From: Escherichia phage ECO103 4-12-1
Sequence record: OR844650
Strand: one strand, 5' to 3'
Length of the DNA stretch: 64,000 nucleotides
The notes below the pieces were generated by a model. The model was not told where the DNA came from, searched no databases, and saw only the letters and a list, made by a program, of their open reading frames with translations. Within the stretch, counting starts at the first letter, position 1. Every line of letters starts with the position of its first letter. This document shows positions 48,069-50,514 of this stretch, piece by piece. The position numbers were made by a program, and so were the translations under genes.

Positions 48069-48998
48069 TTATACAGCCATAGGTGCTTTAATTGTTGGCA
48101 TTGGGTTGTAATTCACTAATTTAAAAGAATCCATAGTGAAATCTTCAATATTAGTAATTGTAGGATCAAGCCACAATTCAGGTAATTCACGAGGTTTTCG
48201 CTGTAGTTGTTCTTTTACTTGTTCAACGTGGTTTTTATAAATGTGACAATCACCACCATTCCAAATAAATTCACCAACATCTAAACCAGTAATTTGTGCA
48301 ATCATATGAGTTAGTAGTGAGTAACTACTGATATTAAATGGAACTCCTAAAAATAGATCAGCGGAGCGTTGATGCAGAATACAGCTTAGTTTTCCTTGCA
48401 CTACACAAAATTGCACAAAGCTATGACAAGGTGGTAACGTCATATCATCAAGCTCACCAACGTTCCATGCACTTAGAATGTGGCGACGGCCATATGGATC
48501 GGACTTTATACCTTTGATTAGTTCTTGTAATTGGTCAGTTGTACGTTTCATAACAACACCATGTGAACCAGTATAATCGATAACTTTGTATCCTTTATCT
48601 TTTAATTCTTGAATTTCTTCAGTACTGGAACTAAATTTATAATCTTCCCATTCACGCCATTGCTTACCATACACTGGACCTAACTCACCATCAGTATAAC
48701 CAAGAGCAACGCCTTGATTTAGGTAATTATCTGTCCAAATAGTTTTCTTTTCTGTATCACGAGTTCCATGCAAAATTTCACAAAGGCGACGCTCATCATG
48801 GGAACCTTCAATAAACCATAGTAATTCTGAAGTCATTGCTTTCCAAGCTAGACGTTTTGTCGTCACTGCTGGGAAACCATCTTTAAGGTCAAAACGCATT
48901 TGTTGACCGATAAGTTTGATTGTTCCAACACCAGTACGGTCAACGCTTTCTACGCCTTCATCTAGAATTTTTTGATATAGTTCTTGTAGTTGTTTCAT
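48069..48998 (-). CDS. thyA: thymidylate synthase (ThyA family)
   Basis: Full-length co-linear match to ThyA: MKQLQELYQKILDEG…DRTGVGT…GQQMRFDL…FPAVTTKR…; active-site LPPCH and DLFLGVPFNISSYSLLTHM motifs. Confidence 0.9.
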   Translation of the reverse strand: MKQLQELYQKILDEGVESVDRTGVGTIKLIGQQMRFDLKDGFPAVTTKRLAWKAMTSELLWFIEGSHDERRLCEILHGTRDTEKKTIWTDNYLNQGVALGYTDGELGPVYGKQWREWEDYKFSSSTEEIQELKDKGYKVIDYTGSHGVVMKRTTDQLQELIKGIKSDPYGRRHILSAWNVGELDDMTLPPCHSFVQFCVVQGKLSCILHQRSADLFLGVPFNISSYSLLTHMIAQITGLDVGEFIWNGGDCHIYKNHVEQVKEQLQRKPRELPELWLDPTITNIEDFTMDSFKLVNYNPMPTIKAPMAV

Positions 48999-49591
48999 TA
49001 TTCTTCCTTGAAAAATGTAATAAAATGTTCCATATGTTTTTCGGTGGCATTGCGTGAACCAATACCAGTCCAGTTACCATGTGGTGCTGGAACGACGAAT
49101 GTTTGTGTGAACTCTTTCAGTACTGTATCGAAATAAAATACTGAACGTGAATTCATATCATAACAATAAATTTCAGGATTTTCAACTGAATCCATATACA
49201 TCTGTACTGCCCATGCAGTACCACCACTTACCTTAGTTGGTGATGTGATATTTGCAATACAATATATTCTTTCTGTATTAAGTATCTGATAACTATTCCT
49301 TGCAAGTAAGTTGTAAACATAAGAACCAGGTTTTGGTACTTTTCGCTGCAACGAGTAACATGCAATGTTTAGTTGATTTAATATAGAAATATCAGATAGA
49401 ATATTGGATGGTATTTCTAATATAGTACTTTCATCTACACTATGCTCATGACCTTTGAATGAAAAATTAATAACTTCAAATCCATTATTTTTTGCATAGA
49501 TAGAAAAAAGGCGGTCAGCACCTGCTGCCCCGCCACTAAAACATACATTAGATAAACCTTTAATTGCTTCATCTAATTCATTCTTTTTCAT
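48998..49591 (-). CDS. hypothetical protein with Rossmann-like glycine-rich loops (possibly SLOG/LOG-like nucleotide-processing fold)
   Basis: CFSGGAAGADRLF and VSGGTAWAVQM loops; overlaps the thyA start by 1 nt; assignment tentative. Confidence 0.2.
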   Translation of the reverse strand: MKKNELDEAIKGLSNVCFSGGAAGADRLFSIYAKNNGFEVINFSFKGHEHSVDESTILEIPSNILSDISILNQLNIACYSLQRKVPKPGSYVYNLLARNSYQILNTERIYCIANITSPTKVSGGTAWAVQMYMDSVENPEIYCYDMNSRSVFYFDTVLKEFTQTFVVPAPHGNWTGIGSRNATEKHMEHFITFFKEE

Positions 49592-49594
49592 ATT

Positions 49595-50251
49595 TTATTT
49601 TGCTTTACGTTCTGCAAATAGTTGTTTTACTTTCTCAATAGCTTTAGTCTGTGAAATACCTTCTGGAATTTCTAGATAAATTGTTTTACTATCTTTCGGT
49701 TGTTCAACAACTTGTGTTTGCGGACGCAAGCTTGGCTCTAAATTGTATGCACGTTCATAATGTTCTTTAGCCAGTTTTTCATATTTTTGTGCATCAGTGA
49801 GAAGTTGTTCTACAATAGTAGCTTCTTCTACTTTAGTGTCCGCTTCTTGTGGATTGAATGGGTTAAAGTCTTTTACTTTACCATCTTCTTGTACTTTCGC
49901 TTGATTTTCATCTAATGCTTTGTTTAGAACATCAAGAGAAATTTTATTATTACCACCAGTGTGCATATCAATGTCACAAGTACGAACGCGACGTAGATGC
50001 TGCATGTTGTGTAGAACATCTAGCATTTTGCGTCCATCGAGATAACCAATTTTATGCATTACTTCCCACAAATCAATATTAGATTGACCATGACCCATAA
50101 CAATATCAGTTACTGCGTGTACATATGCTTCTGGTAGTGAATCACGATAAACGATAAGGCAGTGTTCAGGATCATCTGGTAGTGAACGCCAAACAACAAA
50201 AACACGAGAACCTGTATTACGCATTACACCAACATGACGAATAGCTGCCAT
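49595..50251 (-). CDS. hypothetical protein
   Basis: 218-aa ORF co-oriented and tightly packed with thyA. Confidence 0.3.
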   Translation of the reverse strand: MAAIRHVGVMRNTGSRVFVVWRSLPDDPEHCLIVYRDSLPEAYVHAVTDIVMGHGQSNIDLWEVMHKIGYLDGRKMLDVLHNMQHLRRVRTCDIDMHTGGNNKISLDVLNKALDENQAKVQEDGKVKDFNPFNPQEADTKVEEATIVEQLLTDAQKYEKLAKEHYERAYNLEPSLRPQTQVVEQPKDSKTIYLEIPEGISQTKAIEKVKQLFAERKAK

Positions 50252-50253
50252 AA

Positions 50254-50514
50254 TTATTCTCCTTTATCTTCTTGAGTTTCACTATCTTGTGATTCAGCTT
50301 CTTCTTTAGCTGCATCTTCTTGTGCTTTAATATCTTCAAGAGCTACATTTGCAAAAGAAACAAATTTAGATACAACTGGAGCAACCTCAACAAGTTCTTC
50401 AACTTTAAAGGTGTTTCGTGCAACAGCAGCTTCCATGATTTTTGCAGCATTGATTAGGTCTAGAAGGGTTAGTTGAATTTGATTATTTTCTTGTTCCATT
50501 TTAATACTCTCCAT
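50254..50514 (-). CDS. small acidic hypothetical protein
   Basis: 86-aa ORF with a Glu/Asp-rich C-terminus. Confidence 0.3.
   Translation of the reverse strand: MESIKMEQENNQIQLTLLDLINAAKIMEAAVARNTFKVEELVEVAPVVSKFVSFANVALEDIKAQEDAAKEEAESQDSETQEDKGE

Follow-up and report, generated by a model that had tools for sequence, protein, structure and literature searches.

Gene organisation of the thyA locus

The window analysed here, a stretch of 64,000 nucleotides (nt) of Escherichia phage ECO103 4-12-1 (OR844650), harbours a thymidylate synthase gene (thyA, 48069..48998, minus strand; gp568 in 121Q) preceded by three small open reading frames (ORFs) on the same strand. ORF197 (48998..49591; identical to 121Q gp567), directly upstream of thyA, encodes a single-domain protein of 197 amino acids (aa) that we assign to the SLOG superfamily, of the cpYpsA/YAcAr-like (YpsA-like) type. 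ORF218 (49595..50251; 121Q gp566, phrog_15894) encodes 218 aa, and ORF86 (50254..50514; phrog_13789) encodes 86 aa with an isoelectric point (pI) of 4.2. The original prediction, made from the sequence without database searches, had described these three ORFs (48998-50514) together with two glycine-rich loops in the product of ORF197, and all of them are present. It had also let the 218-aa and 86-aa ORFs follow ORF197, which reverses the transcription order, in which both precede it. The region 48000-53500 matches phage SHEFM2K at 100% identity and phages 121Q, PBECO4 and phAPEC6 at 99.5%, all of them Asteriusvirus members from the Rak2-like group with jumbo genomes of about 350 kb.

The acidic 86-aa ORF named in the original prediction is indeed acidic, although its product is probably only 81 aa long and begins at the second ATG (50499), because this codon is preceded by a GGAG Shine-Dalgarno sequence and is the start chosen in the annotations of 121Q gp565 and phAPEC6 gp263c, both of 81 aa. 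The gene is therefore called ORF81 in the following. The stop codon of ORF86 and the start codon of ORF218 are separated by 2 nt (TAA-tt-ATG), and those of ORF218 and ORF197 by 3 nt (TAA-aat-ATG). The stop of ORF197 and the start of thyA share one base (TAATG, gaagaaTAATGaaa), so that the 1-nt overlap claimed earlier is correct. Coupling of the whole cluster to thyA thus holds for ORF197 by overlap, whereas the two other junctions are short gaps.

Upstream of ORF86, a terminator-like hairpin, GAGAACGGAAAATTCCGTTCTC, followed by a T run (50575..50596, minus strand), closes the preceding transcription unit. It is followed by a sigma70-like promoter recognised by consensus match (50534..50561, minus strand; GGGACA, 16-nt spacer, TATAAT, with an extended -10 TG), where the operon would start. 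Directly 3' of thyA, an intrinsic-terminator-like hairpin of 13 pairs with a T run (48037..48066, minus strand) would mark its end. Phage RaK2, whose proteins are about 62% identical, retains this layout of terminator, promoter and genes, with a terminator at the matching place and the promoter TTGAAC-17-TATAAT with TG. We infer that ORF81, ORF218, ORF197 and thyA form one four-gene operon, a reading well supported by the spacings of 2, 3 and -1 nt, by the terminator/promoter and the second terminator flanking the genes, and by the layout of RaK2. The sigma70-like promoter suggests that the host polymerase transcribes the operon.

The gene order is kept in 15 of 15 Rak2-like loci examined, and homologs at the protein level were found across several Rak2-like genera, with 106 matches for ORF197, 70 for ORF218, and 18 for ORF81. 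Because of these homologs and the conserved order, the three ORFs are considered real genes and not chance ORFs.

Fold and conserved motifs of ORF197

The structure of ORF197 predicted with AlphaFold2 (predicted local distance difference test score pLDDT 97.1, predicted template modelling score pTM 0.92) is a three-layer alpha/beta Rossmannoid, and its nearest structures are SLOG members. With strand positions taken from the model, a Gly-rich loop follows strand 1 and a GG-containing loop and helix lie further along the chain. In the sequence these loops appear as CFSGGAAGADRLF and KVSGGTAWAVQ. The model thus firmly supports a SLOG fold, closest to the circularly permuted YpsA type, in agreement with the SLOG/LOG-type nucleotide fold that had been suspected.

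In an alignment of the ORF197 family (59 sequences, identity down to 25%), both glycine loops are the strongest conserved motifs. The invariant family motifs of ORF197 are SGGAxGxD, RNxxQ, GGTAWA and the C-terminal GIGSR. The residues invariant across the 59 sequences are S19, G20, A22, G24, D26, A77, R98, Q102, G123, T125, A128, G176, I177, G178 and R180, while N99 and D134 are conserved in at least 90% of them. The model topology is tentatively read as circularly permuted, with the invariant GIGSR strand and its helix as the putative permuted first strand. This reading fits the SGGAxGxD strand-loop-helix at the N-terminus and the GIGSR strand and helix at the C-terminus.

Among the Pfam families, only YAcAr (DUF2493, PF10686), a YspA/cpYpsA-related SLOG family, touches ORF197, at the SGGAxGxD strand-loop-helix. 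The match (20.2 bits, residues 6-44) is below the cut-off of 28.2, and only the first ~40 residues align to the model. YAcAr matches 22 of the 59 family members at E<0.1, with a best E of 1.2e-4. Pfam cpYpsA (PF12694) gave no match to ORF197 at E<=1 and none among the 59 alignment members at E<=0.1; its only scores, 17-19 bits against a cut-off of 26.2, came from two distant homologs with fused domains. The search with Pfam DprA (PF02481) found no match in ORF197, and DprA was not the nearest structure either. The NCBIfam search of ORF197 detected no family, and PDB sequence searches with ORF197 and the family profile yielded no meaningful match; therefore only the fold comparison ties ORF197 to solved structures. 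The PHROG search aligned residues 4-161 of ORF197 with positions 23-181 of the 191 in phrog_768 (E=1.3e-26), named 'DprA-like DNA recombination-mediator protein', a name that is an annotation and not a tested function. Centred on phages, the ORF197 family forms a SLOG family of its own, for which current Pfam has no model. GenBank labels for the gene vary between 'DUF2493 domain-containing protein', 'DprA-like' and 'hypothetical', and in vB_EcoM_CRJP21 (OQ708376.1, 143639-144229) the name 'long tail fiber proximal subunit', given to the feature that matches SLOG, seems to be a mistake of annotation.

The cpYpsA structure (PDB 3IMK) is colinear with ORF197, having the N-terminal SGG loop and the additional C-terminal strand-helix. 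ORF197 exceeds it by about 40 aa and contains an additional beta-hairpin, inserted roughly at residues 141-164. The 3IMK entry is a 'putative molybdenum carrier protein' from Syntrophus aciditrophicus.

LOG proteins carry the motif RK...PGGxGTxxE, and R98 of ORF197, followed by a GG-x-x-T-type loop, mirrors this arrangement. In our own motif alignment, made without structural superposition, R98 corresponds to the helix Arg, but Gln130 occupies the position of the catalytic Glu of PGGxGTxxE, as Gln does in most homologs, and ORF197 has no Pfam LOG match. The invariant Asp of the first loop (Asp26) is not known as a feature of LOG. ORF197 also shares its superfamily with the SLOG domain of ThsA, the type I Thoeris effector that senses 3' cyclic ADP-ribose (3'cADPR). 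The ThsA pocket holds 3'cADPR through its Gly loop (G289/S290), R371, K388, G399 and E403, and at the motif positions of these contacts (the Gly loop after strand 1, the Arg of the preceding helix and the GG...E loop/helix) ORF197 has invariant or nearly invariant residues. The polar residues D26, R98, Q102, T125 and R180 (invariant), together with N99 and D134, match motif positions that contact the diphosphate and ribose in ThsA. The ThsA SLOG domain is host-borne and fused to a SIR2 effector, whereas ORF197 is a stand-alone phage protein; Iyer et al. 2022 place the ThsA domain, too, in the YpsA-like branch. By analogy with LOG and ThsA, the SGGAxGxD loop, the R98-N99-Q102 helix, the GGT(A)W loop/helix and the GIGSR strand are predicted to form one pocket for a ribose-phosphate ligand.

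Compared with DprA/Smf and the Shosta protein ShosA, ORF197 is structurally nearer to cpYpsA, has no other DprA domains, is acidic, and has nucleotide enzymes as gene partners. Isoelectric point and net charge were considered as a test for DNA binding and were not decisive, the family spanning acidic to basic members (ORF197 pI 5.75, family median pI ~7).

Distribution and domain architectures of the SLOG family

A profile search against 1.84 billion cluster representatives (50% identity) recovered 2829 representatives at E<=1e-3, and 764 at E<=1e-30. The best 150 of the 2829 matches are mostly stand-alone proteins of 175-210 aa. A subset of the family, comprising P0072, P0084, P0088, P0093 and P0096 and about 10 of these 150 matches (255-312 aa), carries a conserved C-terminal extension of ~100 aa with the motif GGWATV..., for which no Pfam or functional PHROG match was found.

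The search with tblastn revealed the family in 84 annotated phage records. It is present in all Rak2-like genera (phages of Escherichia, Klebsiella, Salmonella, Cronobacter, Erwinia, Pectobacterium, Serratia, Yersinia and Xanthomonas) and beyond them in Agrobacterium phage Atu_ph07, Caulobacter phage Cr30, a Vibrio jumbo phage, uncultured huge phages, crAss-like phages and the N4-like Klebsiella phage Pylas. In Pylas the SLOG domain lies inside the virion RNA polymerase (~aa 981-1144; L010:3001-3492), directly upstream of the polymerase domains. The crAss-like cr113_1 carries it near the C-terminus of a 4328-aa protein (~aa 4067-4226; L011:4001-4477), and several IMG/VR loci within ORFs of >2200 aa. 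Fusion partners that could be named are the histidine phosphatase His_Phos_1 (P0222), NADAR (P0266), AlkB-like oxygenase and SF1 helicase; some of the giant proteins of crAss-like and uncultured phages (including L082, L087 and L088) contain the oxygenase, the helicase or NADAR. These giant proteins are probably injected.

Gene context of the SLOG family

Gene neighbourhoods were surveyed in 90 loci, which form 39 groups at 60% identity of the SLOG protein, by calling ORFs and clustering the neighbouring proteins. The commonest neighbour, found in 18 of the 39 groups, is a P-loop protein of ~216 aa belonging to Pfam DNMK, the T4 gp1-type deoxynucleoside monophosphate (dNMP) kinase (16 Pfam matches within two genes on either side of the SLOG gene in the 39 group representatives). 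The DNMK gene lies immediately upstream of the SLOG gene on the same strand in 32 of 43 occurrences, and its stop overlaps the SLOG start in 29 of these 32 adjacent pairs, most often by 4 nt. ThyA is a neighbour of SLOG only in the two Rak2-like groups. Other nucleotide enzymes, found once each as neighbours, are ThyX, dUTPase, a dCTP-deaminase-like protein, dATP/dGTP pyrophosphohydrolase and dCMP deaminase.

A tail sheath gene lies near the SLOG gene in 17 of the 39 groups. Because this almost equals the DNMK frequency, part of the DNMK signal is conserved synteny of the neck/DNMK/SLOG/sheath region. Many large myoviruses have a gp13-like adaptor, DNMK and the sheath in this order, which resembles the T4 gene 1 (dNMP kinase) region among neck and tail genes, and in 18 groups the SLOG gene is inserted between DNMK and sheath. 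T4 itself is not known to carry a SLOG gene in this region. Genes of PTH2-family peptidyl-tRNA hydrolases also recur near SLOG (4 matches within +/-2 and 5 within +/-3-6 genes of the 39 representatives), which may be a piece of the conserved neck/tail-region synteny.

In contrast to the phages with the DNMK-SLOG-sheath arrangement, Asteriusvirus does not carry the SLOG gene at that junction. Asteriusvirus JP4 has the ancestral-looking order of adaptor, hypothetical, DNMK, sheath and tube intact, with no SLOG gene between DNMK and sheath; its SLOG gene is located ~15.5 kb from DNMK and is coupled to thyA. The DNMK profile hidden Markov model detected no dNMP kinase within the 64-kb window, and the JP4 distance places DNMK just beyond its end. 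The coupling to thyA in JP4 is a second, separate linkage of the family to a gene of the dTMP pathway.

Rak2-like phages share a conserved module of ATPase, VWA, ORF81, ORF218, a ~100-aa ORF, SLOG, a ~115-aa ORF and thyA. Asteriusvirus carries neither of these two small extra ORFs, and RaK2 has the ~100-aa ORF alone. The close coupling with thyA that had been emphasised is therefore true of the present phage but lineage-specific, since in most Rak2-like genera the ~115-aa ORF separates the SLOG gene from thyA; the 1-nt overlap is a local feature.

ThyA, ORF218, ORF81 and neighbouring genes

The thyA product (309 aa; Pfam PF00303, E=7.7e-102) is a canonical thymidylate synthase by sequence. It passes the equivalog model NCBIfam NF002497 (342.9 bits, cut-off 327) and aligns to the E. 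coli thymidylate synthase (E=1e-80) with conservation of PCH (containing the catalytic Cys), RS(A/C)D and (S/K)NH. Insertions set it apart from the E. coli enzyme, one of ~33 aa at residues 119-151 and smaller ones at residues 66-100.

ORF218 is found only in Rak2-like phages. Its product has an N-terminal SH3/KOW-like barrel (~residues 1-119), a disordered linker and two long helices. The possibility that ORF218 is a degenerate dNMP kinase replacing the usual upstream partner was rejected in view of the missing P-loop, the hhalign probability against the DNMK alignment (0.3%) and the SH3/KOW-like barrel. ORF81 is likewise restricted to Rak2-like phages, with 18 close homologs from the database search and weaker ones, detected with phmmer, at the matching position in most Rak2-like loci. 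Pfam, PHROG, NCBIfam and fold comparison revealed no enzyme family or enzyme-like fold in ORF218 and ORF81, which are clade-specific accessory proteins of non-enzyme-like character.

The virion proteome of phAPEC6, determined by mass spectrometry, contained 3 peptides of ThyA, 6 of the ATPase and 1 of the ORF218 homolog. The ThyA peptides parallel old claims that T4 Td is a component of the baseplate. The phAPEC6 record splits the SLOG gene (MK817115.1 198454-199047; L091:1499-2092) into gp260c (65 aa) and gp261c (45 aa), despite the DNA being intact and one synonymous base away from window 48998-49591. Because of this annotation as two fragments, the full SLOG protein was probably missing from the mass-spectrometry database. 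The main text of the CBB paper does not mention CBB_218-222 and names CBB_223 only as thymidylate synthase. The evidence for virion association of the operon products is ambiguous.

Upstream of the operon, and first in transcription order, lies a gene for a MoxR-like AAA ATPase (53433-52108, minus strand), followed by a gene for a DUF2201 metallopeptidase/VWA protein (52033-50609, minus strand), which lies between the ATPase gene and ORF86 and whose transcription unit ends at the terminator-like hairpin described above. This pair (50609-53433) keeps its synteny with the thyA operon throughout the Rak2-like loci. The ATPase gene is preceded by a sigma70-like promoter with a perfect TTGACA-16-TATAAT (53630-53603), and the gap between both genes contains a promoter-like site overlapping a terminator-like hairpin (52093-52061). 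The VWA protein is named 'N4 gp25-like' in the phAPEC6 record and 'HNH endonuclease' in PHROGs and RefSeq, the latter name being unsupported by its Pfam domains.

Proposed role of ORF197 and alternative explanations

We tentatively favour, with somewhat less than even confidence, the reading that ORF197 acts on (deoxy)nucleoside monophosphates in the deoxynucleoside triphosphate (dNTP) supply of the phage. Its ligand would be a (deoxy)nucleoside 5'-monophosphate, and the protein would work in the dNTP-supply pathway beside ThyA in this phage, as its homologs in many other large myoviruses would alongside the dNMP kinase of gp1 type. ORF197 could be a LOG-like N-glycosidase that clears unwanted dNMPs, or a nucleotide-sensing partner of ThyA or the dNMP kinase. 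This reading is ranked first mainly because the SLOG family is linked to two dTMP-handling enzymes at two genomic places. The nucleoside 5'-monophosphate substrates of LOG/PpnN also fit the gene context of the family, and the invariant ORF197 residues at ThsA-like positions support, by analogy, a ribose-phosphate-bearing ligand without specifying which. The role in nucleotide metabolism proposed originally is thus plausible, since many phages couple the family to dNMP kinase and the present one couples it to ThyA.

Several observations weigh against this assignment. The DNMK-SLOG-sheath arrangement could be inherited synteny within one broad T4-like lineage and not a functional unit, and Glu occurs at the LOG catalytic position, Gln130 in ORF197, only in a minority of the 59 aligned homologs. 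Iyer et al. 2022 and 2021 describe viral SLOGs as experimentally uncharacterised. These surveys also supply the strongest competing reading, that ORF197 senses, sequesters or degrades immune signals derived from ADP-ribose (cADPR isomers and related NAD+ products). They report SLOG domains in 31% of jumbo phages, mostly YpsA-like, mention YAcAr-family SLOGs, predict that the viral domains sense or degrade ADP-ribose-derived signals, and list Macro, NADAR and DUF4326 as fusion partners, with sporadic cases of guanylate kinase, helicase, HNH and HTH domains. Consistent with this prediction, the SLOG domain of ThsA binds 3'cADPR through matching motif positions, P0266 has a SLOG domain followed by NADAR, and some loci have NAD synthase (Atu_ph07), NADAR, SIR2, ART-PolyVal, Tpt1/KptA, NAMPT with NMNAT-Nudix or, once, Acb1 as neighbours. 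The occurrence of the domain in the Pylas polymerase and in giant, probably injected crAss-like proteins fits a part in counter-defence or in the handling of DNA better than one in pool metabolism. A counter-defence protein would be expected to be expressed early, with which the sigma70-like promoter is compatible, and to be delivered in other phages as a domain of injected proteins. However, neighbours related to NAD or ADP-ribose occur in only ~5-6 of the 39 groups, compared with dNMP-pathway neighbours in >20; Pfam and PHROG scans of the thyA operon found no Macro, NADAR or Nudix partner, and the published reading remains a prediction. We therefore regard a counter-defence function of ORF197 as somewhat unlikely.

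It is also conceivable that genome compactness alone packs the four genes together and that the neighbours of ORF197 are uninformative about its function. In most Rak2-like genera small ORFs part the SLOG gene from ORF218 and thyA, the dNMP kinase sits among neck and tail genes, and the peptides of ThyA, ORF218 and the MoxR-like ATPase in the phAPEC6 virion proteome indicate that the region mixes functions. The overlap of DNMK and SLOG in 29 of 32 adjacent pairs, although the SLOG proteins are only ~30-40% identical to ORF197, and the fact that the SLOG gene, having left the DNMK position, adjoins another dTMP-pathway gene make such a lack of shared function improbable; this estimate stands apart from those for the ligand readings and overlaps with them. 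Binding of single-stranded DNA (ssDNA) by ORF197 as a recombination mediator or DNA-end protector, as the RefSeq and PHROG name implies, is very unlikely. The name of phrog_768 itself, weak Pfam DNA_processg_A matches in 7 of the 59 family members, the Cr30 homolog located directly after gp47/gp46-type recombination nuclease genes, and the occurrence of the domain together with an SF1 helicase in one giant protein and within an N4-like virion RNA polymerase point in this direction. DprA proteins carry the motif SGxAxGID, which resembles SGGAxGxD. Iyer et al. 2021 propose DprA-type SLOGs as additional ssDNA binders in jumbo phages. Nevertheless, ORF197 has no Pfam DprA match, its single 197-aa domain leaves no space for the flanking domains of DprA, its pI is 5.75 in a family with a median of ~7, and the dominant gene partner is a nucleotide kinase and not a recombination gene. 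The evidence marks 'DprA-like recombination mediator' as a poor database label for this SLOG family.

The original prediction had further considered DNA base modification. A modification pathway centred on thyA could draw on the proximity of ORF197 to a gene of the thymidylate synthase family and on the cleavage of N-glycosidic bonds by LOG-type SLOG enzymes, and on nothing further. ThyA scores above the equivalog cut-off and has its catalytic Cys, Arg and Asn in the same context as the E. coli enzyme, ORF218 and ORF81 lack any enzyme-like fold or family, and family scans confined to the operon genes revealed no hydroxymethylase variant of the thymidylate synthase family, DNA kinase, transferase, glycosylase-type DNA enzyme or amidoligase, the partners expected of a hypermodification cluster. 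As for DNA modification, the two genome papers searched, on the Rak2-like phages CBB and Sharanji, mention methyltransferases only. Such a pathway at this locus is hardly credible.

Implications for the SLOG family in phages

SLOG domains in jumbo phages have already been described computationally, the sequence of the phage is public, and its thyA is ordinary. The description of ORF197 as uncharacterised was thus partly right, given that RefSeq and PHROGs carry the 'DprA-like' label and that surveys of the Aravind laboratory cover YpsA-like and YAcAr SLOGs. New here are the translationally coupled partnership with the dNMP kinase, the relocation beside thyA, and the weakness of the case for the 'DprA-like' name. 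For the family as a whole, we consider it possible, yet rather doubtful, that these SLOG proteins are an unrecognised component of viral deoxynucleotide supply, which would bind or cleave (deoxy)nucleoside monophosphates, for example as a pool-sanitising N-glycosidase or an allosteric sensor. Translational coupling would tie them to the dNMP kinase of gp1 type in many lineages of large myoviruses, Rak2-like phages would have re-coupled them to ThyA, and giant, probably injected proteins of N4-like and crAss-like phages would reuse the module as a domain. This proposal departs from the published NAD/ADP-ribose prediction, and the gene context of the ORF197 family offers a testable alternative to it. 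ORF197 is a small protein of 22 kDa, well folded in the model and soluble-looking, which makes it amenable to ligand-binding and base-release assays. Surveys count SLOG domains in about a third of jumbo phages, and the ORF197 family comprises >2800 cluster representatives at 50% identity.

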